A DNA stretch of 64,000 bases, from assembly GCA_046075485.1 (NCBI GenBank), contig JBJTQF010000024.1, forward strand, positions 2,197-66,196. Direction: 5' to 3'. Below, one piece after another: positions 42,520-57,156 of the stretch. Both the position numbers and the translations under genes were made by a program. The notes under the pieces are model-generated. The model had not been told where the DNA came from. It searched no databases and was given only the letters and a program-made list of their open reading frames with translations. Every line of letters begins with the position of its first letter. Position 1 is the stretch's first letter. The DNA comes from Myxococcota bacterium (GTDB taxonomy: Bacteria; Myxococcota_A; UBA796; JAJRTE01; JBJTQF01).

Positions 42520-44478
42520 TTACTGACCCGGTTTGATCTCGGTCTTCTTCTCGACCCCTTGTGGGGTGGTGGTCTCGGTGGAGGTCTTCTCGATCACATG
42601 GGTCTCGACGGGTTTGCCGTCCAGCTCAATGATGGTGAAGACCACGCGGCGGTTCTGCTCCTTACCTTTGGCGGTGGCATTGTCGGCCACGGGTTTGGTC
42701 TCGCCATAACCCACGGCCACCAGGCGGCTGGCATCGACGCCGAGGTTGACCAAGAACTTGACCACCTCATTGGCGCGGCGCTGGCTCAGCTCGAGGTTGG
42801 AGGCATCATCGCCGACGTTGTCGGTGTGGCCTTCGACGCGGATCTTGGTGATCTCCGGGTTGGCTTTGATGATCAGAGCCACTTGACGGAGCAAGCCAAA
42901 GCTGCGGGTCTGAATGGAGTCCTTACCCGTGTCGAAGTAGACCTTCTCCAAGATCTCCACGCGGTCTTTGGTCACTTGGACCAAACTCTTGCCTTCATCG
43001 GGGCAGCCGTCTTCGTCTTTATTTCCGTTGATGGTCTCCGGTTTACGCGGACACTGATCGGCGGCGTCTTTGATGCCGTCCTTATCGAAGTCATCTTCGG
43101 GGCAGCCGTCTTCGTCGCCGAGTCCGTCTTTATCTTCGGCGAACATCGGGCACTTATCATCCTTGTCGAGCACACCGTCGCCGTCGTTGTCGGGATCTTC
43201 GCAGCCATCGTTGTCGGCTACGTTGTCGCGGTCTTCCAGGGAGTCGGGGCACTTATCGTCTTTGTCGAGCACACCGTCGCCGTCGTTGTCTGGATCGTCG
43301 CAGCCGTCTTCATCCTTGAAGCCGTCTTTGTCTTCAGGCTGATCCGGGCACACGTCCATGCTGTCCAAGATGCCATCTTGATCGTTGTCGGGATCGGAGC
43401 AACCATCTTGATCCTGGAACTTATCCTTGTCCTCAGCTTCTTTCGGGCAGGCATCGTCCTTGTCGATGATGCCATCACCGTCGGTATCTTTGGGCGGTGC
43501 TTTGGCAGCGGGGGTGAGCGAATAACCCACGAAGAACCGGAACGTCGGCGTTCCATATCCTTCTGAGAGCCCCGGTCCCACACCCACTGTCAGCGCATGG
43601 GCGGGCATGGGGGTCAAGCGTGCGGCGATATTGGCCTCCAGCGGCACGAGCTGGGCGGCATACTCTCCGTTGTTTTCTGCATCGAGCTGTGCCGTGGTGT
43701 CGGCATCCACCCCTGCCTTGCCAAAGAGCTCGGCCAGCAGGGTCACTTTTTCGGGCATCAGGGCATATGCGGCACCCAGACCGAAGCTCAGCTCATTGCC
43801 GATGGGGAGGGTGTACAGGTCGGCATCGGTGCGCAGCACGTAGCCCACATTGGCACCCACTCGCACCTTCTCGGTGGTGTACTCCAGCAGCAGACGCGGC
43901 TCGATGGTGAGGTTGCCATTGCCTTCAAAGCTCAGCTTATCGCCGGTGGGCAGGCCAAACTGACCTTCCAGGCCCACGTTCAGGCCCTTATCCTCGGGCT
44001 TGAGCAGGTGCGCACGCGCGTGAAGGCGCACATCCCCCACGGTGCTGCTGGCGTAAGAAGGGGGTGGGAAAAACCCTTCTGAATCGACGACTTGAAGCAG
44101 AGAGACGGGCAGGGCGAGCCCCAGTTGTAAGCGGTTGAAGAGGCCCAAGCTGGCGACCAAGTCCGCTGCAAGGTGAGGGCCGACCAGTGCTTGCTCCAGA
44201 TCTCCGGCTGTGCTGGTGGCCACCAACGGGCGATGGCCATAGTTGAGCCACAGTCCTGCGGACGGTTGCAGATGCTTAAGTGTCGAAGCACCGGACACAT
44301 GGTTAAAGTTCAGCGTGGTGCCACCGGTCGGCTGAAACTGCTGAATGCTCACATTTTCGTATGGCACCGTCTGGGCCAGCAAAGGCAGAGGGCTGGTCAA
44401 GGCCAGACATGCACCGGCCAGGATCATTGATTTGCGTGTCATGTTCATCCTCTTGGCTTGGAGAGGTTGCGGCTGCAC
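42520..44478 (-). CDS. OmpA-family outer-membrane protein. It has an N-terminal beta-barrel, a central run of thrombospondin type 3 (TSP3) calcium-binding repeats, and a C-terminal OmpA peptidoglycan-binding domain.
   Basis: The signal peptide is MILAGACLALTSPLPLLAQT. TSP3 units are DTDGDGIIDKDDACP, DQDGCSDPDNDQDGILDSMDVCP, DEDGCDDPDNDGDGVLDKDDKCP (twice) and DEDGCPEDDFDKDGIKDAADQCP. The OmpA motif is RVEGHTDNVGDDASNLELSQRRANEV. Confidence 0.8.
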   Translation of the reverse strand: MQPQPLQAKRMNMTRKSMILAGACLALTSPLPLLAQTVPYENVSIQQFQPTGGTTLNFNHVSGASTLKHLQPSAGLWLNYGHRPLVATSTAGDLEQALVGPHLAADLVASLGLFNRLQLGLALPVSLLQVVDSEGFFPPPSYASSTVGDVRLHARAHLLKPEDKGLNVGLEGQFGLPTGDKLSFEGNGNLTIEPRLLLEYTTEKVRVGANVGYVLRTDADLYTLPIGNELSFGLGAAYALMPEKVTLLAELFGKAGVDADTTAQLDAENNGEYAAQLVPLEANIAARLTPMPAHALTVGVGPGLSEGYGTPTFRFFVGYSLTPAAKAPPKDTDGDGIIDKDDACPKEAEDKDKFQDQDGCSDPDNDQDGILDSMDVCPDQPEDKDGFKDEDGCDDPDNDGDGVLDKDDKCPDSLEDRDNVADNDGCEDPDNDGDGVLDKDDKCPMFAEDKDGLGDEDGCPEDDFDKDGIKDAADQCPRKPETINGNKDEDGCPDEGKSLVQVTKDRVEILEKVYFDTGKDSIQTRSFGLLRQVALIIKANPEITKIRVEGHTDNVGDDASNLELSQRRANEVVKFLVNLGVDASRLVAVGYGETKPVADNATAKGKEQNRRVVFTIIELDGKPVETHVIEKTSTETTTPQGVEKKTEIKPGQ

Positions 44479-44497: not shown

Positions 44498-47143
44498 TTA
44501 CGCCTGGGCCCCACGAGAGGTGCGGCGGCGGCGAGAAATCAGCCCCAGCAGACCAGCCACCAGCGCAAAGGTGCCTGTGCTGCTCCCCGAGTTTGCTCCT
44601 GTCATCGAGCAGCCAGTTCCCTGGATGACCAGGGCGTCATATGGCAGCTCATCACACTCATCCCCCAAGCCATCCTGATCCGAGTCGTATTGATCGGGGT
44701 TGGAGACATCACGGCAGTTATCTTCCGCTGCCAGCACGCCATCTTGATCGGCGTCGTCGTCGGTATCGTCGCAGACATTGCCTTTCCCGTCACCGTCGTC
44801 GTCGGCCTGATCTGCATTGCTGTTGAGCGGGCAGTTGTCGTCTTCGTTGGCGATCTTGTCACCATCGATATCCCCATCGCAGGCATCTCCGAGGTTATCT
44901 CCATCGACGTTGCCTTGATCGGTGTTGCTGAGGCTGGGGCAGTTGTCATCCGCATCCACAATCGTGTCATTATCGTCATCAGCATCGCAGGCATCCCCCT
45001 TGCCATCACGGTCGAGATCCTTTTGATCGACGTTCTTGACCGTCGGGCAGGTATCCACACTGTCGAGCACGCCGTCGTTGTCGCTGTCGAGGGCATCAAT
45101 GGTGCCGTCATCGTCAGAGTCCGCTGCTTCGTTGCCACCGCCATACTCTGCCAGGTCAGAGAGACCATCTTCATCCGTATCGTCCACAAACGGGTCCAAG
45201 TTTGCTTCATACTCGGTGGTATTGTCCAGCCCATCTTCGTCGGAATCGAAGGTCGAGCTGTCATCTACCCAGCCATCGCAGTCGTCGTCTTTGCCGTTTT
45301 CGCGCTCGGTCGCATCCACGTTGATGGCGGCATCTTCGTCATCGCAGTCATTTCCGCCCAGCGCGCTACAGTCGGCTGCTGACAAAAATCCATCGTCATC
45401 GCTGTCGAAGTTTTCGTCAATTGCTTCGTCACAGTCTTGGTCGATGCCATCGCAAATTTCCTGTTCTAGCGGACTGATTTCGGGGTTCAGGTCGTCGCAG
45501 TCTGCCACATCCACCGAGCCATCATTGTCGTCATCGGCATCCACACAGTCCGCATACGGATCGTCGTCGAAGTTGGAGAACCCTTCATCCACATTGTTGT
45601 CACAGTCGTTGTCGATGTCATCGCAGCTCTCGGTGGCACCTGGATAGGCTGCGTCAGAGGCGTCATTGCAGTCGGTCTGGCCAATCGGATTGCATACCGT
45701 GGAGATCGGGAATCCATCTTGATCAGAATCGGTCGCATCCACCATGCCATCGCAGTTGTTGTCCAGCTTGTCGCCGCAGACCTCGGTGGCTCCTGGTTTG
45801 GTGCTGGCCTCGCTGTCATCGCAGTCTCCTTGCACCTCGGTGAAGCCGTCTCCATCGTTGTCCACCTCCAAACAGCTCAGATCGCCGCCGGAGCAGTTTT
45901 GATCGATGCCATCCCCACAAATTTCAGCCACGTTGGGCGAGATTTTGCCATCTCGGTCGTTGCAGTCGCCGCCGTTTTCGCTCACCCCGTCCCCGTCGTT
46001 GTCTTGATCGGCGCAGCTTAGGTCGGCCCCGGAGCAGTCTTGGTCGATCAGATCGCCACAGGTCTCCGGTGCGCCCGGATAGATGCTGTTGCTGAGATCG
46101 TTGCAGTCTCCTTCGCCGATGGTGAAGCCATCGCGGTCGGAGTCCCCCACTTCGCAGACGGCGTCTCCGCCAGAGCAGTTGTCATCCAGGAGGTTGCCAC
46201 AGATCTCGGTTGCGCCCGGATGCACGGCATTGTTGGAGTCATTGCAGTCCGTTCCGCTGGCACCACCGGGATAACCATCGTTGTCGAGGTCGTTGAGATC
46301 CGCGCCTGAGCAGTCCTGATCGATGCCATCGTAAGGCACTTCGGCGGCCCCGTCAAAGATGGTGATTTCGTCGTCGTTGCAGTCACCTTCGGCTGCTGTT
46401 TGGCCATCACCATCGTTGTCATAGGGGACGCAGCCCAGCGCGGTGCAGAGCAGATAGTCCGAGATGCTGTCTTCAATCCGGGTGCTGGTGCCGTTGAGCA
46501 GGTCGCGGGAGAGGGTATTGACCAGCTCCGTGGTGCCAAACACAAACCGCAAGGGTCTGGCAATATCCACTTGGGTATAACCCAGCTCGCGGAGCGGAAT
46601 GGCCCAGTCCACAAAATAGTCCGCATCACCGTTGATGGAGCTGTCCGCCAGCTCCACCCGCGCATGTTTGCTTGCCACAAATGAGGCAATAAAGCTCTCA
46701 GACAGATCCCGTGGCGAATTTGGCGTGGCTTGGATCAGATTCTCGTATAGCTCCACCTGATCAGGAGAGGCAAACCCGTTGAGGGTGGCAATCGCTTCGT
46801 AATCGTCGGAGTCCTTATCTCCGTCGAACTCCACGCCCCAGCCGTAGTCGTTAAAGTTGGTGCTCGAGAGCTGGGGATCGGCATCCAAGCGCATGCGAAA
46901 GTACAAAAAGTCGGCATCCCGATAGGCGTAAACGCTGGGTGCGCTGGAGCTGCCCACAATGTCGCGGTGATCGACATAGTCGCCGGTCACATCGGTGAGG
47001 GGTTGTCCTTTGTGGGTCAGCGGTTCCCAATCCTCATCTTGCGCCGGAAAGGCAGGCAGCGCATGTGCCGCATTGGGGAGCCAGGCCATCACGCCCACGG
47101 AGGCCCCCATCAGGGCCGATAAAGCAACATTTCTTTTCATCAT
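44498..47143 (-). CDS. Large secreted repeat protein. It has an N-terminal globular domain, then MopE-type Cys-rich repeats, then TSP3-like repeats, and ends in a MYXO-CTERM sorting signal.
   Basis: The signal peptide is MMKRNVALSALMGASVGVMAWLPNAAHA. Repeats include CNDDEITIFDGAAEVPYDGIDQDCSG and CDGIDQDCDEAIDE, followed by DNCPSLSNTDQGNVDGDNLGDACD and DNCRDVSNPDQYDSDQDGLGDECDE. The C-terminus is GTGCSMTGANSGSSTGTFALVAGLLGLISRRRRTS. Confidence 0.7.
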   Translation of the reverse strand: MMKRNVALSALMGASVGVMAWLPNAAHALPAFPAQDEDWEPLTHKGQPLTDVTGDYVDHRDIVGSSSAPSVYAYRDADFLYFRMRLDADPQLSSTNFNDYGWGVEFDGDKDSDDYEAIATLNGFASPDQVELYENLIQATPNSPRDLSESFIASFVASKHARVELADSSINGDADYFVDWAIPLRELGYTQVDIARPLRFVFGTTELVNTLSRDLLNGTSTRIEDSISDYLLCTALGCVPYDNDGDGQTAAEGDCNDDEITIFDGAAEVPYDGIDQDCSGADLNDLDNDGYPGGASGTDCNDSNNAVHPGATEICGNLLDDNCSGGDAVCEVGDSDRDGFTIGEGDCNDLSNSIYPGAPETCGDLIDQDCSGADLSCADQDNDGDGVSENGGDCNDRDGKISPNVAEICGDGIDQNCSGGDLSCLEVDNDGDGFTEVQGDCDDSEASTKPGATEVCGDKLDNNCDGMVDATDSDQDGFPISTVCNPIGQTDCNDASDAAYPGATESCDDIDNDCDNNVDEGFSNFDDDPYADCVDADDDNDGSVDVADCDDLNPEISPLEQEICDGIDQDCDEAIDENFDSDDDGFLSAADCSALGGNDCDDEDAAINVDATERENGKDDDCDGWVDDSSTFDSDEDGLDNTTEYEANLDPFVDDTDEDGLSDLAEYGGGNEAADSDDDGTIDALDSDNDGVLDSVDTCPTVKNVDQKDLDRDGKGDACDADDDNDTIVDADDNCPSLSNTDQGNVDGDNLGDACDGDIDGDKIANEDDNCPLNSNADQADDDGDGKGNVCDDTDDDADQDGVLAAEDNCRDVSNPDQYDSDQDGLGDECDELPYDALVIQGTGCSMTGANSGSSTGTFALVAGLLGLISRRRRTSRGAQA

Positions 47144-47602
47144 GGTCTCAACCTAAAGATGGGTTATGCACAGATAGTAGAGGTGCCGAGGACTGCCCTC
47201 TTAAACCAGCCGCTGCTATGCAAGCAGTGTGCCGCTCAAGCCGCAAGGGCCCGTGACATCGTTACTCCGGTCAACACGAGCTGCCAGGTGCAGGCTCATG
47301 GTCGAGCTCCGGCACCGCGTACACTTTATGCGCCGCGAGCTGCCATGCAGTGCTGCGAATGTCTCGAGCGGGGTGTCTCGTGATGTCTCAGAAGTGTCTC
47401 ATCGTTTTCTCTCTGATGTCTCACCGTCTCAGACACTCCAACTTGCCGTTACGACCGGAAATGTACGGCAAGCGCTGGAACGATAGCACAGAGCTTGGTA
47501 GAGAACAGCGGTCTTTTTTGGATGCGTTCATGCAAGAGGCATGTTAATAACAGATCTCCATGTCCTCATAGGAATGAACCATGTCCGTGGTGGGAGGTGC
47601 TT

Positions 47603-48781
47603 GTGTTTGCCAGTGCTGCTATTCCTCCTGAGCCGGGGATTCTCTCCGTGTCTGCTTTTGCCCGCCTGCTCACCCGCATCCGCGAGGCGGGTTATACGCT
47701 GGTCGGCCCAACCGTGCGGGAAGGGGCCATCGTTTTGGACACCCTCGAGGGGGTAGATGACTTGCCCATCGGCTGGCAAGAAACACAAGATGCGGGTCAG
47801 TATCGGCTGCATCGTCTGGAGACGCCCACCTATTTTGGATTTTCTCAAGGCCCACACGCTTGGAAAAAGTACCTGCATCCCCCTCGGCTGAAGCTCTTCT
47901 CGGCCAAGAAGACCCCACAAGGTTTTGAGATCACCTCGAGTCGGCCTCCCGTGACCCGATATGCCTTCTTGGGGCCTCGTGCGTGTGATCTGCACGCGAT
48001 GGAAAAACAGGCCGCTGTTTTTGCCAGTGCGACCCAGCCCGATCCCACCTACGCTCAGACCCTTGAGCAGGCGTTGGTGGTGGCCGTGAGCTGCACCCGC
48101 TCCGGTGGCACTTGTTTTTGCACCTCCATGAACACGGGCCCCTCGGTGGAAGGGCTCGCGCGTTCGAGCGAGCGGCGCGCCGGTTACGATCTGGCTCTCA
48201 CCGAATATCTGGCAGTAGATCGGCACTTCTTCTGGGTGGAGCTGGGCTCCGAGCGGGGGCGGGCGCTGGTGGAGGGACTGACTTCTCCGGGCACACAAGA
48301 AATGGAGCTTCAGGCCAAAACTCAGGTGGTGGAGGCTGCGCGGACTCAGACTCGGCATCTGCACACCGAAGGGCTGCGGGAAGCCTTACGCGCCGAGGCA
48401 AACAGTCCTCGCTGGCAGGAGATTGCTCAGCGTTGTCTGAGCTGTGGGAGCTGTACCCTGGTGTGTCCCACCTGTTTTTGTCACTCGGTGGAGGATACTT
48501 CCGACGTGACCGGTGAGCATGCCGAGCGGTGGCGGCGCTGGGACTCCTGTTTCACTCAGGATTTTTCGTATATCCACGGCGGCGGTGTGCGGCAGGAGGG
48601 GGCTTCACGGTATCGACAGTGGTTGACCCACAAGCTCTCGACCTGGTTTGATCAGTTTGGCAGCTCTGGTTGTGTGGGGTGTGGCCGCTGCATTGCGTGG
48701 TGTCCGGTGGGCATCGACATCACCCAGGAGGCGGAGGGGTTTCGCTTGGCGTCGTTGGCCCGTCCTACTTCGGCGGTTTGA
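47603..48781 (+). CDS. hyhB: Group 3b [NiFe]-hydrogenase beta subunit (AsrA-like iron-sulfur subunit)
   Basis: The GTG at 47603 has a GGGAGG sequence 5 nt upstream; the track's longer N-terminus looks spurious. The Fe-S Cys motifs are CLSCGSCTLVCPTC and CVGCGRCIAWCP. It occupies the first position of a beta-gamma-delta-alpha gene order, like sulfhydrogenase hydBGDA. Confidence 0.6.
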   Translation: MFASAAIPPEPGILSVSAFARLLTRIREAGYTLVGPTVREGAIVLDTLEGVDDLPIGWQETQDAGQYRLHRLETPTYFGFSQGPHAWKKYLHPPRLKLFSAKKTPQGFEITSSRPPVTRYAFLGPRACDLHAMEKQAAVFASATQPDPTYAQTLEQALVVAVSCTRSGGTCFCTSMNTGPSVEGLARSSERRAGYDLALTEYLAVDRHFFWVELGSERGRALVEGLTSPGTQEMELQAKTQVVEAARTQTRHLHTEGLREALRAEANSPRWQEIAQRCLSCGSCTLVCPTCFCHSVEDTSDVTGEHAERWRRWDSCFTQDFSYIHGGGVRQEGASRYRQWLTHKLSTWFDQFGSSGCVGCGRCIAWCPVGIDITQEAEGFRLASLARPTSAV

Positions 48782-48873
48782 TTGGATTCCGCCCTGTTGT
48801 GACGGGCTCGAGGGGCTTTTTGAGGTGAGGGCCCCTCTTTTTTATCCATCGTGAGAGATAGAGGATATATCGT

Positions 48874-49332
48874 ATGATCGATCCCACCCTTATTTTGGAG
48901 CAGGCCCTCTTTCGGGGGCTGACCCCTGAGCAGGCCCAGCGGGTGGCCGAGCACGCTTCGCTGCGGAGCTTCGAGCCGGGGAAATATCTGTTTCACGAGG
49001 GGGAAGCGGCGGAGGTGCTGCATCTGGTGCGCTTTGGCCGCGTGGCACTTCAGCTTGTGGTGCCGGGGCGTGGGGCGCAGCTTCTTCAGACCTTACGGCC
49101 CGGGGAGGTCTTGGGCTTGTCGTGGATGCAGGCTCAACCGCGCTGGCTCTTTGATGCGCGTGCGCAGGAGCTCACCCGGACCCTCACCCTTCATGCGCCG
49201 AACCTGATCCAGATCATGGAGCAGGATCCGGCCCTGGGTTATACCTTGATGCGTCGTTTGGCGCTCGAGATGGGCTCCCGCTTGCAGGCCGCTCGGCTCC
49301 AGCTCTTGGATCTCTATGACGAAAAACGGTGA
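48874..49332 (+). CDS. Stand-alone cyclic-nucleotide-binding-domain protein (Crp/FNR-type cNMP-binding fold, no HTH), embedded between hyhB and hyhG
   Basis: The 152-aa product fits the cNMP-binding beta-roll pattern (LFRGLTPEQAQRVAEHASLRSFEPGKYLFHEGEAAEVLHLVRFGRVAL...LRPGEVLGLSW...). It lacks the canonical phosphate-binding RS/TA motif (it has PRWL instead) and lacks any DNA-binding domain. Confidence 0.55.
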   Translation: MIDPTLILEQALFRGLTPEQAQRVAEHASLRSFEPGKYLFHEGEAAEVLHLVRFGRVALQLVVPGRGAQLLQTLRPGEVLGLSWMQAQPRWLFDARAQELTRTLTLHAPNLIQIMEQDPALGYTLMRRLALEMGSRLQAARLQLLDLYDEKR

Positions 49333-49340
49333 GGCATCCC

Positions 49341-50219
49341 ATGACGTTTGAAGTGCCTGCTCAGCCCTGGACCCAAGACCTGCCGACCGCCCTCGCTGCT
49401 CCGATGGTGCCGGTGCCTTATCAGATCCTGAGCCGTCGGCAAGAGAACGACGACAACTTTACCCTGGAGCTTGCGCCGGTGGGTGGAGGCCCTCATCCTG
49501 GTTTCCAGCCTGGCCAGTTTAACATGCTCTATGTGTTTGGCGTGGGGGAGGTGCCGATCTCGTTTAGTGGTCCTTCGCACGATCCCAACAAGATGGTGCA
49601 TACCATTCGAGTGGTGGGAGCGACTACCCGAGCGTTGGGCCAGCTCAAGCGGGGCGAGGTGGTGGGCCTTCGAGGGCCCTTCGGGGTGCCTTGGCCGATG
49701 GCGCAGGCCCTGCATAAAGATGTGGTGTTGGTCGTGGGTGGGGTGGGACTGGCTCCGTTGAGACCGGTGATCTACGCGGTGTTGCATCAGCGGGCGCTCT
49801 TTGGGCGGCTGGTGATCTTATACGGCGCACGCACGCCCAAGGAGCTGCTCTTTACCCGCGAGCTGTCCCGCTGGGCCGGTTTGCGAGGGGTGCAGGTGGA
49901 AGTCACGGTGGATCGGGCGGCGGAAGGCTGGACCGGTCATGTCGGTGTGGTGCCCGCGCTGGTGCAGGATGCTCAGTTTGATCCCCATCATACGATTGCC
50001 ATGACCTGCGGCCCAGAGGTCATGATGCGTTTTTCTGCCCGCGCTTTACTTGCCAAAGGCATGAAAAAAGAGGACATCTACTTTTCGATGGAGCGCAACA
50101 TGAAGTGCGCCATTGGTCAGTGTGGCCGGTGTCAGTGGGGCCCTCATTTTATGTGCAAAAATGGCCCTGTTTTTGCATTCAACCGCATCGAAGAGCTGCT
50201 CGCCATCAAGGAGCTTTAA
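49341..50219 (+). CDS. hyhG: Group 3b [NiFe]-hydrogenase gamma subunit (AsrB-like FAD/NAD(P)-binding, [2Fe-2S])
   Basis: The ATG at 49341 follows a GGTGAGG sequence. It has an FNR-like fold ([17 protein letters not shown]-terminal Cys cluster [17 protein letters not shown]). It is contiguous with the small-subunit gene. Confidence 0.7.
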
Positions 50220-50221
50220 AA

Positions 50222-51040
50222 ATGGCCTCCAAGCGACGTCCCAAGCTGGCGGTGTGGAAGTTTGCTTCCTGTGATGGCTGCCAGCTCAGCCTGCTGGATT
50301 GTGAAGATGAGCTGCTGGCCGTGGCGGATGCGGTGCAGATTGCCAACTTCCCCGAAGCCTCTCGTGCAGTGGTCAAGGGCCCTTACGATCTCTCCTTGGT
50401 CGAGGGCTCGGTGACCACGCCTCATGACCTCGAGCGCATCCAACAGATCCGGGCACAGTCGAAGGTCTTGATCACCATCGGGGCCTGTGCCACCGCAGGC
50501 GGGGTGCAGGCGCTGCGTAATTTCCAGGATGTCAAAGCCTTCACTTCCATCGTGTATGCGCGCCCGGAGTACATTCACACCCTTGCCACATCAACGCCCA
50601 TCGCGCACCATGTGAAGGTCGATTTTGAGCTCAACGGTTGCCCGATCAATAAAAAGCAGCTCATCGAGGTGCTGAGTGCCTTTTTGATCGGGCGAAAGCC
50701 AGTCACACCCTCCCATGCGGTGTGTGTGGAGTGTAAGCTCAAGGGGAATGTGTGTGTGACGGTGGCACATGGCACGCCCTGCTTGGGGCCCGTGACCCAT
50801 GCGGGCTGTGATGCCCTCTGTCCGAGTTTTGCCCGGGGATGTTTTGGCTGTTATGGTCCGATGGACAGTGCCAATGCCCCCGCGCTGGTTCAACATCTTC
50901 AAGCCTCGGGACAAGCGCCCGAGAGCCTGCTGCGTGCCTTCCGCACCTACAACACCCAAGCGCCGGCCTTTGCAGCCGTGGCCGCGCAGCTTGAAGCGGC
51001 GATTGCCGCCTCCGCACAAACAAAGGGGCTCGAAGTATGA
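50222..51040 (+). CDS. hyhS: [NiFe]-hydrogenase small (delta) subunit, group 3
   Basis: An AAGGAG RBS sits 8 nt before the ATG at 50222. The N-terminal proximal-cluster motif is [16 protein letters not shown]. Further Cys motifs are [40 protein letters not shown]. Its stop overlaps the large-subunit start (ATGA). Confidence 0.8.
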
Positions 51041-52338
51041 GCGAAAAGTCCGTCACCAAGACCATCAAGGTCGATTACCTCGCCCGTGTCGAGGGTGAAG
51101 GGGCGCTCCACATCGTGGTCAAACAAGGGCAGGTCGAAGACGTCCAGCTCAAGATCTTTGAGCCTCCCCGGTTTTTTGAGGCATTCCTGCGAGGGCGGCA
51201 ATTCACCGAAGCGCCGGACATCACCGCCCGCATCTGTGGCATCTGTCCGGTGGCCTACCAGATGAGTGCCGTACATGCGCTCGAGTCTCTCTGTGGGGTG
51301 CGCCTCGAGGGTCCACTGCGGGCCCTGCGTCGCCTGCTTTATTGTGGTGAGTGGATCGAGAGCCATGTGCTCCACGTTCATATGCTGCATGCCCCCGATT
51401 TTTTGGGCTTTGAGGACGCCATCCAGCTTGCAAAAGTGCATCCAGCGGTGGTCAAACGGGGGCTGGCCATTAAAAAAATCGGCAATGAGATCGTTCAAGC
51501 GGTCGGTGGCCGCGAAATTCACCCCATCAACGTCAAGGTAGGTGGATTTTATCGAGTCCCCACCCGCAGCGAGCTGGCCCCACTCCGCGAAAAGCTGGCC
51601 TGGGCCCTGGAGGAGGCGGAGGCTGTGGCCCGCTGGAGTGCCACCCTTCATTTTGCCGACTTTGAGCAAGATTATGAGTTTGTCGCCTTGCGCCATCCCG
51701 ACGAATATCCTTTTAATGAGGGGCGCGTGGTCTCCAATCGAGGGCTGGACATTCCAGTCACAGCGTATCCTGAGCATTTTACCGAGGTTCATCGGCCTCA
51801 CTCGACGGCTTTACACTCGGTCTTAGACGGTGAGCGGTCGTATTTTCTGGGACCACTCGCACGATGGGCGCTCAACTTTGACAAGCTCCCGGCGCGGATT
51901 CAGGCGCTGGCGGTGGCGTTGAAGGTCGAGCCTCCCGTGCTCAACCCCTTTAAGAGCATTGTGGTGCGGGCGCTGGAGACGGTTTTTGCGTTCGATGAGG
52001 CCATTCGCATCATCGATGCGTATGAGCGTCCGTCAGAACCGGCGGTGCCGGTGGAGCCTCGAGCGGGTGTGGGGCATGCCGCCACTGAAGCGCCTCGAGG
52101 CATGTTGTATCATCGTTATGAGCTGGCCGACGATGGGCGTATCCTGGATGCCCGCATCATTCCGCCCACCTCTCAAAATCAGGGACGGATTGAGCAGGAT
52201 CTGCGTGCGTTTGTCACCCCTCGCTGGAAATTGCCAAAAAAAGAGCTCACCTGGCAATGTGAGCAGGCGGTGCGCAACTACGATCCCTGCATTTCTTGCT
52301 CCACCCACTTTTTGAACCTCACGATGGATGAACACTGA
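51037..52338 (+). CDS. hyhL: [NiFe]-hydrogenase large (alpha) subunit, group 3
   Basis: The L1 motif [10 protein letters not shown] is near the N-terminus. The L2 motif DPCISCSTH is at the C-terminus, followed by a short cleavable extension (FLNLTMDEH). Confidence 0.85.
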
Positions 52339-52365
52339 ACGATTTGGGTGCCGGGAGAGGCTGAG

Positions 52366-52845
52366 ATGGGTGCATTTTGGGTGGTGGGCCTGGGAAATCC
52401 GATGCGGCAGGATGATGGGCTGGGTCCGAGGGTGATCGAGCAGCTTCAGCGCCTGCGTCCTCACTGGCCGCTGAAGGTGATGCGGGGAGACGCGGCGGGC
52501 CTGCTGGAGCTGTTGCCCGGTCTCGAGGGGCTGGTGGTGATCGACGCCTTGATTTCCGGGACGGCACCGGGCACCTTGCTGGTGCGGGATTGTTCGACTC
52601 AGCCCCTTCCCACCACCCTCAAAGGGGCTTCCACCCATGCGCTGGGGGTCGCGGAGGCCCTCGAGCTGGCGCGTATGTTGGATCAGCTCCCGCCGGTGGT
52701 GTGGGTGTTTGGGGTGGAGGCGCTGTGGTCGGGGCATGGAGAAGGGCTCTCCCCTCCGGTGGAAGCTGCAATTCCGGCACTGTTGGATGCCCTGACCCAA
52801 CTGCTGGATCCATACTTCGGAGATGCACTCGACGCTGTGCGCTGA
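52366..52845 (+). CDS. Hydrogenase maturation endopeptidase (HycI/HoxW-type)
   Basis: A GGGAGAGG sequence sits 5 nt before the ATG at 52366. The motif is FWVVGLGNPMRQDDGLGPRVIEQL, typical of large-subunit C-terminal processing proteases. Confidence 0.75.
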   Translation: MGAFWVVGLGNPMRQDDGLGPRVIEQLQRLRPHWPLKVMRGDAAGLLELLPGLEGLVVIDALISGTAPGTLLVRDCSTQPLPTTLKGASTHALGVAEALELARMLDQLPPVVWVFGVEALWSGHGEGLSPPVEAAIPALLDALTQLLDPYFGDALDAVR

Positions 52846-52976
52846 TGGGCGTCGTTTACGCCGTGAGTGCCTGTTTTTCAAGAGCTTTTTTGTCACGAGC
52901 TTGAGCTGTTAAAGATGTCTGAGGACACCAGGGCAGCGGTTCCCTCCGCTGAAGCCCTCACGAGAAGGAGCTGATT

Positions 52977-53252
52977 TTGCACGAGCATGCCTTGATCAAC
53001 GATCTCTTTCGGAAGATCAACACCACGGCGGAGCAACATCGGGCAACCCGGGTGCGTAAGGTCTCGGTCTGGCTGGGGGCGCTCTGTCACATCTCCCCGG
53101 AGCACTTCCGCGAGCACTTCGAGCACACCGCGCCGGAGACTCGAGCCGCTGGCGCTCAGCTCGAGCTGGAGGTGAGTGACGACCTGCATCATCCCAACGC
53201 GCAGCAGCTCTATCTGACCTCGCTGGAGCTGGACATTCCCGACGGCATATGA
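52977..53252 (+). CDS. hypA: HypA-like nickel-metallochaperone lacking the C-terminal zinc-finger domain. It has a TTG start.
   Basis: An AAGGAG RBS sits 6 nt before the TTG at 52977. The N-terminus MHEHALINDLFRKINTTAEQHRATRVRKVSVWLGAL matches the HypA MHE Ni-binding N-terminus and first helix. The 91-aa product contains no CxxC...CxxC motif. Its stop overlaps the hypF start (ATGA). Confidence 0.5.
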   Translation: MHEHALINDLFRKINTTAEQHRATRVRKVSVWLGALCHISPEHFREHFEHTAPETRAAGAQLELEVSDDLHHPNAQQLYLTSLELDIPDGI

Positions 53253-55687
53253 CAGCAGCCGTCCGATTTCGCCTGAGCTTTGAAGGGCTGGTGCAGGGGG
53301 TGGGATTTCGTCCTTTGGTGGCGCGGCTGGCGCAGGCGCAAGGACTGGGGGGGGAGGTCTACAACCTCGGCGCGCGTGTGAGGCTGGAGCTGGAAGGCCC
53401 GCCCGGTTTTTTGCCTGCTTTTTTGGAGCAGCTCGAGCAGCAGCTTCCGCCGCTGGGGTCTCGGCGTGTTCCGACGGTGGAGCCGATGCAGGTGCAGGAT
53501 CAGCGGTCCTTTTTGATCTTGCCCAGCCAGATGGAAAGTGGAGGATTGCCGCAGTCGCTGCCGGATCTTGCCCCGTGTCCTGCTTGCCTAGACGAAGTGC
53601 TGAGTCCAACCGGTCGCCGTTCCGGCTATGTGTTTACCTCCTGTACTCGCTGTGGCCCCCGAGACTCGATTCAGAAGGCTCCGCCCTGGGATCGTGAGCG
53701 GACCAGTATGGTGGACTTTCCGCTCTGTGCCGCGTGTCTGAAAGAGTACACTCAGCCCTCAGATCGGCGTTTTCATGCGCAGACGCTCGCCTGTCCAGCC
53801 TGTGGACCGCAGCTCGAGGGCCATCTACCGGGGGGTGAGCGGGTGGGGCACGGTGAGCAGGCGTTTCAGCAGGCGCTGGAATACCTTCGGCGCGGCCAAG
53901 TGGTGGCGATGTTGGGGGTGGGAGGCTTTCAGCTCCTGGTGGATGCGCGCTCGGAAGAGGCGGTGATGACGCTGAGGCAGCGCAAACATCGTCCGCACAA
54001 ACCGTTGGCGGTGCTGGTGGCAGGGCTGGAGCAGGCGGAGCGGCTGGCCCGACTTTCGCCGCTCGAGCGGCAGCTCTTGGAGAGTCCGGCGGCGCCGATT
54101 GTCCTGGTACGGTCGGAGGAGACACTTGCCAAAAGGGTAAACATGCACTTGCCCTGGCTGGGAATGATGCTGCCCGCTTCGCCCCTCCATGCGCTCTTGG
54201 TGCGGGATTTTGGTGGGCCGCTGGTGGTGACCTCGGGCAATCGTGCGGGAGAGCCGCTCTGCCTGACGCTGTCCGAGGCGTTGGAAGCCCTGGGGGAGGT
54301 GGCGGACTTCTTCTTGAGCCACAATCGCCCCCTGCTGAGACCCCTGGATGACTCGGTTGTCCAGGTGGTATTGGGAGCGTCAGGCTCGGAGCAGGCTCAG
54401 TGGCTGCGGCGAGGGCGAGGGGCTTCTCCCTGGACGATGGAGGTGCCAGCGTCCGTGTGGGGCGGGTGCGGGACTCAAAAGTCCAGTGTCGAAGGAAATT
54501 TGGACGCCATGCGCATGGCTCAGCGGGGGATGCTGGCGCTGGGAGGGCAGCTTAAAGCGGCTCCAGCAGTGCTGAGCGGGGACGGCGTGGCTGCACCGCT
54601 GCTCCAGCTTGGGCCGCATGTGGGGGAGCTGAGCACAGAAAAAGCCCTCCAGCGGCATCTCGAGGGGGCGAGAGAGCTGCTCGAGCGTCACGGGGTGAAC
54701 GATCCGGTGGTGCTGGAGGACGCCCATCCAGAGGCGGCAACAGCGGCGACGGTGAAGGGGCTGGGGACGACCTCCCGGCGCTGTGGACATCATGAGGCCC
54801 ATGCTCGAGCGGCGATGCTGGAGGCACAGTGCTCGGAGGCGCTGGCCCTGGTGCTGGATGGTGCCGGATATGGGCTCGACGGCACCCTCTGGGGGGGAGA
54901 GCTGTTGCAGGTAACGCGAGCGGATTGTGTGCGGCGAGGCCAGCTCCGTCCCTATTATCTGGTGGGGGGCGCTCTTGCCTTTCGCCAGCCCTGGCGTTGC
55001 CTTCTGGGTGTGTGGGGAATGGAGGCGAGACGGGAGCAGCTTCCCGCGTGGGTGCGCGCTCGCTTGCCCGCTCAGGCGGAGGCGCTCGAGAAGCTGGGTC
55101 AGCAGCCCGCTCATCGGCTGGAGACCTCGAGTGCAGGACGGCTCTTCGACGCGGTCGCGGCGCTGCTGGGGTTTGAAGGCACTCAAACCTACGAAGGACA
55201 CGCGGCTTTGTGGCTGGAGGGTCTGGCGACACAGGCGCTCGAACGGTCACGACCGTCGGAAGGGGGCTCGGAAGAGCGGTGGGTGTTGCCACGGGTGCTC
55301 GAGCGCGGTCACGGCGGGTTGTGGCTGGACCCCTTTCCGGTTATGCAGGGAATGGCGCAGGTGCTCGAGCAGATCAACTATTCCAAAACGCTGACAAGTG
55401 ATTGCCAAATATCCGCCGAAGTGGGAAGGCTGGCACTTCATTTTCATCAGGCGCTGGCGCAGGGGCTGGTGTGGCTGGTGGAAAAGGCGCAAGAGACGGA
55501 GGCGAAGAAGCTGCCGGTCCTGCTGACGGGGGGATGTTTTCAGAACCGGCTGCTGTTGGCGTTCACCCGGCAGGGTTTGGAACAGCGCGGCTGGCGGGTG
55601 CAGGTGCCGCAACAAGTGCCACTCAACGACGGCGGTTTGGCGGTGGGTCAGCTCATGGCGGCCCTTCACGGGCGAGCTCTGGGTTGA
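53249..55687 (+). CDS. hypF: [NiFe]-hydrogenase maturation carbamoyltransferase HypF
   Basis: The acylphosphatase N-terminus is FEGLVQGVGFRPLV. There are two Zn-finger motifs (CPACLDEV...CTRCGPR and CAACLKEY...CPACGPQ). YrdC-like and Kae1/YgjD-like domains follow. 812 aa. Confidence 0.9.
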   Translation: MTAAVRFRLSFEGLVQGVGFRPLVARLAQAQGLGGEVYNLGARVRLELEGPPGFLPAFLEQLEQQLPPLGSRRVPTVEPMQVQDQRSFLILPSQMESGGLPQSLPDLAPCPACLDEVLSPTGRRSGYVFTSCTRCGPRDSIQKAPPWDRERTSMVDFPLCAACLKEYTQPSDRRFHAQTLACPACGPQLEGHLPGGERVGHGEQAFQQALEYLRRGQVVAMLGVGGFQLLVDARSEEAVMTLRQRKHRPHKPLAVLVAGLEQAERLARLSPLERQLLESPAAPIVLVRSEETLAKRVNMHLPWLGMMLPASPLHALLVRDFGGPLVVTSGNRAGEPLCLTLSEALEALGEVADFFLSHNRPLLRPLDDSVVQVVLGASGSEQAQWLRRGRGASPWTMEVPASVWGGCGTQKSSVEGNLDAMRMAQRGMLALGGQLKAAPAVLSGDGVAAPLLQLGPHVGELSTEKALQRHLEGARELLERHGVNDPVVLEDAHPEAATAATVKGLGTTSRRCGHHEAHARAAMLEAQCSEALALVLDGAGYGLDGTLWGGELLQVTRADCVRRGQLRPYYLVGGALAFRQPWRCLLGVWGMEARREQLPAWVRARLPAQAEALEKLGQQPAHRLETSSAGRLFDAVAALLGFEGTQTYEGHAALWLEGLATQALERSRPSEGGSEERWVLPRVLERGHGGLWLDPFPVMQGMAQVLEQINYSKTLTSDCQISAEVGRLALHFHQALAQGLVWLVEKAQETEAKKLPVLLTGGCFQNRLLLAFTRQGLEQRGWRVQVPQQVPLNDGGLAVGQLMAALHGRALG

Positions 55688-55741
55688 GTGGACCACTTTT
55701 CTCGCCGGAGTCTTCAGCGCGACAAAACAGGAGATAAACCC

Positions 55742-56077
55742 ATGTGTCTGGCTGTCCCAGGTAGTGTTGAAGCCTTGCTCGATCAAGATCCGATGATGCG
55801 GCGGGCGCGGGTGCGCTTTGGAGCCCTCACCCGGGAGGTCTCCCTGGCCTTTGTCCCCGAGGCGGAGGTCGGTGATTTTGTGGTGGTGCATGCTGGTTTT
55901 GCCATCAGCCGCTTAGATCCGCTGGAAGCAGCGCGGGTTTTTGAGGCCCTCGATGCGCTGGGCGCGCTGGAGGAGGTACAAAATCCTGCTGAGGCGGAAG
56001 TTTGTCCTGTGTCGCCGGATAAATCTGCCTCCTCACCGTCTGAGACGCTCCCACCTTCCCCGGAGTGTGGCCGATGA
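55742..56077 (+). CDS. hypC: Hydrogenase maturation factor HypC
   Basis: A GGAGA sequence sits 7 nt before the ATG at 55742. The HypC-diagnostic N-terminus MCLAVPGSV is present. The product has an unusually long Ser/Pro-rich C-terminal tail. Its stop overlaps the hypD start (ATGA). Confidence 0.7.
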
Positions 56078-57156
56078 AATATCAGCAAGAATACCGTGAT
56101 CCCGGCGCCATTCGCCGACTGGCGCAGGCCCTCGAGCGCCTCTGCACCCGTCCACACACCATCATGGAGGTCTGCGGCGGACAGACCCATGCGTTTCTGC
56201 GGTTTGGATTGGAGCAGCTCCTGCCCTCGTCGCTGGAGCTGGTGCATGGTCCGGGGTGTCCAGTTTGTGTGACACCGGAGTCACGCATCGACGAAGCGGT
56301 GGCCCTGGCCCTGACACCGGGTGTTCTGCTCTGTACCTTTGGGGATATGTTGCGCGTGCCGGGTTCTTCCTGGAGTCTCGCGCAAGCGCGCGCGCGAGGG
56401 GCTCAAATCCAAGCGGTGTATTCGCCTCTGGATGTGCTCGCGGTGGCCGCAGCTCAACCGGAGCGGCAGGTGGTCTTCTTTGGAGTGGGTTTTGAGACCA
56501 CAGCCCCTGCGGTGGCGATGCTGGCCTATCAAGCCAAACGGCAGCGGCTTCAAAATCTGTCGTTGCTGCTGGCCCATGTCTTGGTGCCCCCGGCGATGGA
56601 AGCGGTGATGGCATCGCCGGACTGTCGCGTGCAAGCATTTTTGGCAGCAGGCCATGTCTGCGCCGTCATGGGCATAACGCCTTATCAGCCACTGGTAGAT
56701 AAGTATCGTGTGCCGGTGGTGGTGACTGGCTTTGAGCCGCTGGATCTGCTGGAGGGGCTCCGCCGCTGTGTTTTACAGCTCGAGCAGGGCAGGGCAGAAG
56801 TGGAGAACGCCTATGCGCGGGTGGTGCCGACCCACGGCAATCCGGTGGCACAAAAGCTGTTGCTTGAAGTGTTTGAAGTCACCCCTCGAACGTGGCGCGG
56901 TTTTGGGGAGCTGCCCGCCAGTGGACTGGAGCTCTCCGCCGCCTATGCGGAGCTCGATGCCCGCCGACGATTTGAAATTCCCCCCACTCAGGAGCCGCTG
57001 GATCGAGGCTGTCTCAGCGCCCTCGTCCTGCAAGGTCGGAAAAAGCCTCCCGAATGTCCCCATTTTGGCCAGACCTGTACCCCCGATCATCCCCTGGGGG
57101 CCACGATGGTCAGCGCCGAGGGTGCTTGTGCGGCCTATCTTCACTATCGGGTGTAG
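56074..57156 (+). CDS. hypD: Hydrogenase maturation factor HypD
   Basis: The N-terminus [16 protein letters not shown] is HypD-like (cf. MKYVDEFRDP). Motifs are [16 protein letters not shown] and CPHFGQ..C. Confidence 0.85.

Follow-up and report, generated by a model that had tools for sequence, protein, structure and literature searches.

The archaeal sulfhydrogenases I and II (Pyrococcus furiosus hydBGDA and shyBCDA; PDB 9nez and 5yxy) are built from four core subunits whose genes follow the order beta, gamma, delta and alpha, presumably with no gene between beta and gamma. A stand-alone protein with a cyclic nucleotide monophosphate (cNMP)-binding fold is known from a different enzyme, the group 3d NAD-reducing soluble hydrogenase of Cupriavidus necator H16, where the subunit HoxI is present in two copies, dissociates readily from the diaphorase and has been linked to NADPH activation. 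Within group 3b operons, cNMP-domain genes have been noted in Frankia casuarinae (Francci3_4499; PMC11879354), where the paper, like the databases, labels the gene a small transcriptional regulator; in Rhodococcus equi (WP_013415449.1; PMC13332983); and in Methylosinus acidophilus 29, whose 3b-linked gene was called HoxI (PMC12319191). We found no functional study of the 3b-linked gene in the literature. Here we describe such a gene from the metagenome-assembled genome (MAG) of a Myxococcota bacterium, an open reading frame (ORF) of 152 aa at 48874..49332 (+), lying between hyhB and hyhG of a group 3b operon; it is already annotated by NCBI (MFM7199489.1) and its counterparts are mentioned in passing in the three papers cited. 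Positions refer to the window, that is, the whole stretch of 64,000 nt that was analysed (contig JBJTQF010000024.1).

A cNMP-domain gene between hyhB and hyhG is the standard layout of bacterial group 3b operons, and it is probable that 3b hydrogenases of bacteria contain a sensor-like fifth component not present in the archaeal model enzyme. For the window itself the finding is ordinary, the gene being at the position expected for a bacterial 3b operon, and the general interest lies at the level of the family. We computed the reality of the gene, its fold, the loss of the cNMP contacts, the conserved and coupled synteny and the existence of a fusion to HyhB. The fusion is new, as are the C-helix motif, the co-varying cysteine pair, the group 4 neighbours and the Streptomyces operons without the gene.

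The six-gene operon proposed in the initial annotation was recovered at essentially the same coordinates, with all genes on the + strand. Its first gene, hyhB (47603..48781), encodes an AsrA-like beta subunit (Pfam Fer4_22, 121 bits; best NCBIfam models ShyB, AsrA and HydB) whose C-terminus is a 2x[4Fe-4S] Fer4_22 domain and which matches the beta chain of sulfhydrogenase 1 (9nez_B) with 107 bits; the gene call in a related contig (L082) uses a start that likewise gives 392 aa. The cNMP ORF is followed by hyhG (49341..50219), an AsrB/HydG-like gamma subunit with NAD_binding_1 and DHODB_Fe-S_bind domains that binds flavin adenine dinucleotide (FAD), NAD(P) and a [2Fe-2S] cluster; with HyhB as the Fe-S subunit it forms the diaphorase module. 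The small (delta) subunit gene hyhS (50222..51040; Oxidored_q6; best NCBIfam models HydD and ShyD), the large (alpha) subunit gene hyhL (51037..52338; MFM7199492.1) and, immediately downstream, the gene of a hydrogenase maturation endopeptidase (52348..52845; HycI in Pfam, TIGR00072) complete the set. The HyhL translation has the four-cysteine Ni-Fe ligation motifs (RICGIC near the N-terminus, DPCISCSTH near the C-terminus) and a short C-terminal extension for protease cleavage.

In a search of the PDB, HyhL scores 234 and 228 bits against the sulfhydrogenase alpha subunits of Thermococcus kodakarensis and P. furiosus, compared with 154 bits for Mvh (group 3c), 139 bits for an NAD-reducing group 3d enzyme and at most 121 bits for the F420-type enzymes. 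Its best NCBIfam models are ShyA (266 bits) and HydA (255 bits), and for all four subunits the best models are those of the ShyABCD/HydABGD sulfhydrogenase set. Because of these scores, models and motifs, the sulfhydrogenase-type group 3b assignment made in the initial annotation is supported, with a predicted link to NADP(H), and the beta-gamma-delta-alpha-protease arrangement agrees with archaeal hydBGDA in both gene order and core subunit homology.

Distribution and genomic context of the gene

The family was collected by a first homology search (61 stand-alone proteins of about 150 aa), a profile search (1,051 proteins) and an exhaustive hidden Markov model (HMM) scan at E<=1e-30, which gave 1,253 representatives of 50%-identity clusters, some multi-domain proteins included. 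In a separate scan with one genome per species, at least 504 genomes carry a relative. Synteny was sampled in the best 80 loci, drawn from over 15 phyla plus one Bathyarchaeia MAG, by tblastn with the six operon proteins of the window. In 71 of these 80 loci, hyhB, the cNMP gene and hyhG stand in this order on one strand, followed by hyhS, hyhL and the protease gene as far as the contig reaches. The phyla with this arrangement include Acidobacteriota, Actinomycetota, Chloroflexota, Proteobacteria, Bacteroidota, Zixibacteria, Nitrospinota, Verrucomicrobia and Planctomycetota, and a Polyangia MAG (L032) carries the same operon as the window. The genes are tightly packed: the junction with hyhB overlaps or spans no more than 25 nt in 60 of 69 loci, and the junction with hyhG does so in 65 of 69, the nearest possible start being taken. 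Among the 80 loci, no fusion of the cNMP gene with either neighbour was found.

Operons on annotated plasmids, anchored on the large subunit, show the same trend, with the gene present in seven of nine examined (Paraburkholderia, Burkholderia, Pandoraea, two Rhodococcus, Streptomyces BHT-5-2 and S. rimosus); RefSeq also holds family examples from Paraburkholderia (WP_063501083.1) and Rhodococcus (WP_016881449.1). The two operons without it lie on related Streptomyces linear plasmids (L090, 2336-4109; L094, 2105-4106), in which hyhG directly follows hyhB with about 130 nt between the two matches, and other Streptomyces (L091, L093) keep the gene. Since these two operons lack it, the gene is dispensable for the core enzyme. 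A connection between its loss and loss of the HyhB N-terminus would fit the HyhB of L090 (297 aa), but is ruled out by the full-length HyhB of L094. The initial annotation had described the gene as inserted, implying a peculiarity of this operon, and had proposed a synteny check in other 3b genomes; that check, which places the gene between hyhB and hyhG in the great majority of loci, overturns the idea, as do the species count, the plasmid operons and the three papers.

One lineage joins the two proteins covalently. P0209 (542 aa), which came from the exhaustive HMM search alone, consists of a full HyhB, a linker of about 20 residues and a family cNMP domain (207 bits with the family HMM). 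The fusion occurs in three independent assemblies (L095, 1110-2738; L096, 2924-4552; L097, 1739-3367), and two versions of it are 97% identical, with 17 substitutions and no insertions or deletions. On the two longer contigs, a second copy of the family, this one free (192 bits; L096, 4649-5110; L097, 3464-3925), comes after the fused gene and before hyhG. The fusion suggests that the domain works while attached to the C-terminal Fe-S end of HyhB and that the protein stays with the enzyme as one of its components and is not a diffusible regulator, and the combination of fusion and free copy suggests that two sensor domains act together.

Seven of the nine atypical loci in the set of 80 still lie beside hydrogenase genes, which here belong to the complex-I-like, membrane-associated group 4. 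In one of them (L030, 350-6447), the cNMP gene is divergent from a group 4 operon that starts with HyhB/HyhG-like genes. The other six are Acidobacteriaceae/Terriglobia loci (L047/L048, 19-7157, as well as L021, L025, L029 and L066), in which the family gene follows a group 4 NuoB-like small subunit gene; in at least three of them (L021, L047 and L048) a second, different cNMP-only gene (163 aa) is found just downstream of it. The group 4-linked copies are about 60% identical to the 3b-linked ones. Of the remaining two loci, L055 has no hydrogenase genes in the contig region examined, and L034, which is close to narGH-like ORFs, has upstream only a weak match to HyhB.

Two related metagenomic contigs (L082 and L084) carry the same operon with the same upstream MopE/TSP3 neighbour. 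The cNMP ORF is 80% and about 60% identical to the copies on these contigs, with a ratio of nonsynonymous to synonymous substitution rates (dN/dS) of 0.20-0.25, against 0.07-0.14 for hyhB, hyhG and hyhL. By this measure the ORF is a real gene under purifying selection, and its conservation in relatives, on which the initial annotation had staked its proposal, is borne out. The window's clade differs from most other loci, in which the first junction overlaps, by having a spacer of 73-92 nt between hyhB and the cNMP gene. In the window this spacer measures 92 nt (48782..48873, +) and contains a terminator-like hairpin (48810-48837, +; 11-bp stem, folding free energy -19.2 kcal/mol) with T6 after it, and the ATG of the cNMP ORF is preceded by the Shine-Dalgarno sequence AGAGGA. 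We rejected the hairpin as a conserved attenuator: neither L082 nor L084 has a counterpart, the z-score of the fold reaches only -1.4, and the number of terminator-like sites in the region equals chance. No Rfam match was found in 47000-53400.

At the other junction, hyhG has two candidate starts. GTG 49329 overlaps the cNMP stop codon, while ATG 49341 lies 8 nt past the TGA and has a GGTGAGG Shine-Dalgarno sequence that itself overlaps the TGA. ATG 49341 is the likelier start, and a related contig has its hyhG called in the same way. The overlap of the cNMP stop with the hyhG start that had been described would thus hold only for GTG 49329.

Fold and conserved residues of the encoded protein

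The sole domain of the 152-aa protein is PF00027, cNMP_binding (46.2 bits; cutoff 27.5), and the ORF is the only one in the window with such a domain. An AlphaFold2 model computed from a 36-sequence alignment is confident (predicted local distance difference test score 92.8, predicted template modelling score 0.84) and consists of an N-terminal helix, an eight-stranded roll, a short helix and a long C-helix (residues 119-149). The protein has no helix-turn-helix (HTH) domain, and the model ends 3-4 residues past the C-helix. Foldseek matches it to CRP, GlxR, DNR and PKG domains, the best match being a stand-alone cNMP domain (PDB 3MDP; TM-scores 0.79/0.90). As modelled, the protein is a CRP/FNR sensor domain that ends at the hinge where the DNA-binding domain would begin, and the initial description of a cNMP beta-roll without HTH stands. 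The same holds for the 120 best family matches, which are all 148-172 aa long, with PF00027 only and no HTH.

The phosphate-binding cassette is degenerate. In an 81-sequence family alignment that includes Escherichia coli CRP and HoxI, it corresponds to GEVLGLSWMQAQPRWLFDARA (49102..49164, +; residues 77-97). The residue assignments within it follow a gapless register of the protein kinase A (PKA) type, which is our own reading; MAFFT places gaps against the ERSA segment of CRP. In this register, the Glu that contacts the ribose 2'-OH is replaced by L82 in the window protein (W in 72 of 81 relatives), the Arg that contacts the phosphate by W91 (W in 79 of 81), and the Ser/Thr-Ala pair by L92-F93, while the family consensus at the contact positions is W82, W91, H92 and F93. 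The canonical R-S/T-A residues are thus absent, as had been pointed out in the initial annotation. Because the ribose and phosphate contacts are missing, a cyclic nucleotide of the cAMP/cGMP type is unlikely as the ligand. Effectors other than cNMPs are common in the CRP/FNR family.

The most conserved feature of the family is instead the end of the C-helix, RLQ(A/T)xRLQLLDxY(G), which in the window protein reads RLQAARLQLLDLY (49279..49317, +; residues 136-148), its columns being invariant or nearly so; it occupies the position of the CRP dimerisation helix. Next in conservation are GEVLG(W)SW and W-FDARA, both in the former cassette, and the roll residues R53, G55 and T73. The window protein keeps all of these and carries the family signature (GEVLGLSW...RWLFDARA together with RLQAARLQLLDLY), scoring 183 bits with the family HMM. 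Tandem two-domain family-like proteins also exist (P0155, P0157 and P0160); we give them little weight as support for a dimer, and P0157 adjoins RND efflux genes, not hydrogenase genes.

A second group of residues is shared by most members and is replaced in the window protein, which has Q10, H27, L30, L82, Q88, P89, H107, N110, I112, I114 and M115 in place of H10, C27, N30, W82, P88, Y89, D107, C110, R112, K114 and C115, respectively. The full H10/C27/C110/C115 pattern is present in 83 sequences of a 143-sequence alignment, in which Cys27 and Cys110 are almost always kept or lost together. In window numbering, C27 lies at the end of the N-terminal helix and C110 in the short helix after the roll. 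This region is where FNR binds its cluster and where FLP, an FNR-like protein with a redox-active disulfide, forms that bond. The co-variation suggests that in canonical members the two cysteines may work jointly, as a redox or metal site, for example by forming a disulfide. The window protein, which forms a separate clade with P0001-P0006, lacks the Cys27/Cys110 pair as well as Cys115 and His10, and on this evidence it is a divergent, somewhat degenerate family member. Since the pair is lost, thiol- or metal-based sensing cannot apply to the window copy, and whatever the cysteines may do elsewhere cannot be the conserved core function of the family.

Possible functions

We favour the reading that the 152-aa protein, the product of a regular member of bacterial 3b operons, is an accessory subunit that forms a dimer and docks on HyhB, resembling HoxI without being its orthologue, and give this reading about as much credence as doubt. 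Made together with HyhB and HyhG, the protein would dimerise via its invariant C-helix and become a fifth, accessory subunit by docking on HyhB, its probable partner, at the ferredoxin-like C-terminal part, in a role analogous to that of HoxI2 in the C. necator soluble hydrogenase. It would not bind cAMP or cGMP in the canonical way; rather, the aromatic-rich and strongly conserved pocket region probably senses another ligand or state, and this sensing may tune the diaphorase side of the NAD(P)-linked enzyme. The conserved, coupled synteny and the HyhB~cNMP fusion lend support to the accessory subunit that the initial annotation had suggested, and the allosteric or regulatory effect included in that suggestion is one that we infer.

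Several points weigh against this reading. The archaeal enzyme and that of Mycobacterium smegmatis are both described as having four subunits, and no bacterial 3b hydrogenase has been purified with a cNMP-domain protein. Two Streptomyces operons (L090, L094) do without the gene, and the fusion is found in a single lineage. In L030 the gene is divergent, an arrangement typical of regulators, L055 has no hydrogenase genes in the region examined, and L034 combines a weak HyhB-like match with narGH-like neighbours. Finally, in the window's clade the spacer of 73-92 nt replaces the overlap of the first junction, and in the window it holds the terminator-like hairpin.

A wider proposal, possible but doubtful, is that bacterial 3b and some group 4 hydrogenases are five-component enzymes, in which a dimer of CRP/FNR sensor domains without a DNA-binding part sits on HyhB and controls, at the protein level, how electrons pass between NAD(P)H and the [NiFe] site. 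The signal, from a metabolite or the redox state, would then be read by the re-purposed aromatic-rich pocket and, in most lineages, also by a Cys27/Cys110 switch, and the Cys-less clade of the window would be a natural case of docking uncoupled from thiol sensing.

The alternative that survives best, though we consider it unlikely, is that the protein is a regulator without a DNA-binding domain, acting in trans on hydrogenase expression and not part of the enzyme, for example as a C-helix heterodimer with a full-length CRP/FNR factor or with another signalling protein. Both the fold and the C-helix are of the CRP/FNR sensor type, and the label of small transcriptional regulator in the databases and the Frankia paper (PMC11879354) follows the same line. 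The divergent L030, L055 with no hydrogenase genes nearby, L034 with its weak match, and the Acidobacteriaceae loci with two different cNMP-only genes side by side are also what one might expect of regulators. However, the 120 best family matches are single-domain proteins without HTH, the gene lies between two structural genes with overlapping junctions in more than 15 phyla, and one lineage has it fused to HyhB. A search of the hyhB promoter region in the window found no FNR/CRP-type box, and with the family HMM no full-length CRP/FNR gene was detected in the window.

Less likely again is a transient chaperone that assists assembly or maturation of the HyhB/HyhG diaphorase module, in Fe-S or FAD insertion or in subunit docking, and is absent from the mature enzyme. 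Co-transcription between hyhB and hyhG would suit such a factor, as would its dispensability in archaea and in some Streptomyces, and the canonical co-varying Cys27/Cys110 pair, together with C115 and H10, could bind a metal or a cluster. Yet the window's clade has lost all these cysteines while the gene remains under purifying selection, and a permanent fusion to HyhB suits a resident subunit better than a transient factor. We also know of no chaperone with a cNMP fold.

True orthology with HoxI is improbable. It would make the protein an extra site at which NADPH binds and activates the enzyme reductively, which is what has been reported for the soluble hydrogenase of C. necator. The two share the domain type, a similar size (152 versus 167 aa) and the same kind of operon, and the Methylosinus paper uses the name HoxI (PMC12319191). 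The identity of the window protein to HoxI of C. necator pHG1 is, however, only 26% over 126 aa of a generic domain, and hhalign, which relates HoxI to the family with 96% probability, gives 23% identity. HoxI lacks the family motifs GWSW...W-FDARA and RLQxxRLQLLDxY, its gene follows the hoxW protease gene at the operon end instead of lying between the diaphorase genes, its partner diaphorase is HoxFU, not HyhBG, and an NAD(P)H site is already supplied by HyhG. We therefore rejected orthology on the grounds of identity, motifs and operon position.

That the ORF is decaying, non-functional or a chance insertion in this genome is barely credible: it lacks, through loss, about ten residues that hardly vary elsewhere (H10, C27, N30, W82, P88, Y89, D107, C110, R112 and K114) and follows a spacer with a terminator-like hairpin, but this reading is contradicted by the relatives that share the operon at 80% and about 60% identity with dN/dS of 0.20-0.25, and also by the confident fold prediction, the retained C-helix and core motifs, and the good Shine-Dalgarno sequence.

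Neighbouring genes and comparison with known systems

Linked maturation genes follow on the + strand, namely a short hypA-like gene (52977..53252; Pfam), hypF (53249..55687), hypC (ORF 55688..56077) and hypD (56065..57156). The hypC ORF as listed begins 18 codons 5' of the conserved MCLAVPG, and the ATG at 55742 is the probable functional start. The HypA-like protein is only 91 aa long. It has the MHE nickel motif at its N-terminus, but its match to the Pfam model of 112 positions covers no more than positions 1-66, and with one Cys in all it lacks the CxxC...CxxC zinc site. Comparably short HypA genes (about 88-104 aa) follow the protease gene in L082 and L084 and in the Paraburkholderia, Burkholderia and Pandoraea 3b operons.

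Same-strand (T)GTCTC(A) direct repeats form an array about 180-240 bp upstream of hyhB (47361-47431, +), with six copies at 47361, 47375, 47385, 47396, 47418 and 47426; the background rate of this motif is about 2.5 per kb. The array is conserved in L082 (4941-5006) and L084 (5047-5098), where in L084 five perfect and two degenerate copies are phased at exactly 11 bp. It looks like a phased operator, and we regard it as a putative binding site for a regulator of the hyh operon. Further upstream and divergent is the gene of an 881-aa protein with eight MopE-type metal-binding motifs and TSP3 repeats (44498-47143, -), and beside it that of an OmpA/TSP3 protein (42520-44478, -). This pair likewise adjoins the operon in L082 and L084.

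Among known systems, the CRP/FNR sensor domains (CRP, GlxR, FNR, FLP, CooA and NtcA) share the beta-roll and C-helix with the 152-aa protein (Foldseek probability 1.0), and the C-helix of CRP (RRLQVTSEK...FLD) aligns with the RLQ...LLD helix of the family. The family differs in having neither an HTH domain nor the canonical cNMP contacts, and its gene is embedded in an enzyme operon and, in one lineage, fused to the Fe-S subunit. The closest solved structure is Gmet_1532 of Geobacter metallireducens (3MDP; root-mean-square deviation 1.7 Å, 28% identity), which is likewise a single-domain protein but is a structural-genomics entry without known function.

The genes of Frankia, R. equi and Methylosinus are alike in their position between HyhB and HyhG, their length of about 150 aa and their single cNMP_binding domain. 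Their products, like the RefSeq examples, are only 33-50% identical to the window copy, which differs from them in having lost Cys27, Cys110 and Cys115 and in its spacer of 73-92 nt. The best functional analogue is HoxI, which likewise consists of a cNMP fold standing alone and whose gene also belongs to the operon of an NAD(P)-linked [NiFe]-hydrogenase, although the sequences point to a resemblance that is analogy and not orthology.

With the archaeal sulfhydrogenases, the window operon has in common the four homologous core subunits and their gene order, at low identity, the scores all being under the NCBIfam equivalog cutoffs. Group 3b hydrogenases are among the most widespread cytosolic hydrogenases of soil and sediment bacteria and have been implicated in hypoxia survival and redox balancing; both their interpretation and their engineering for NADPH regeneration follow the archaeal enzyme with its four subunits. 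This model has no place for a fifth gene that shows conservation in over 15 phyla, translational coupling and, occasionally, fusion to hyhB, which is a clear gap and one that can be tested. The gene may account for regulation or for the response to oxygen or redox state in the bacterial enzymes, and could also explain failed heterologous expression when only hyhBGSL are cloned.

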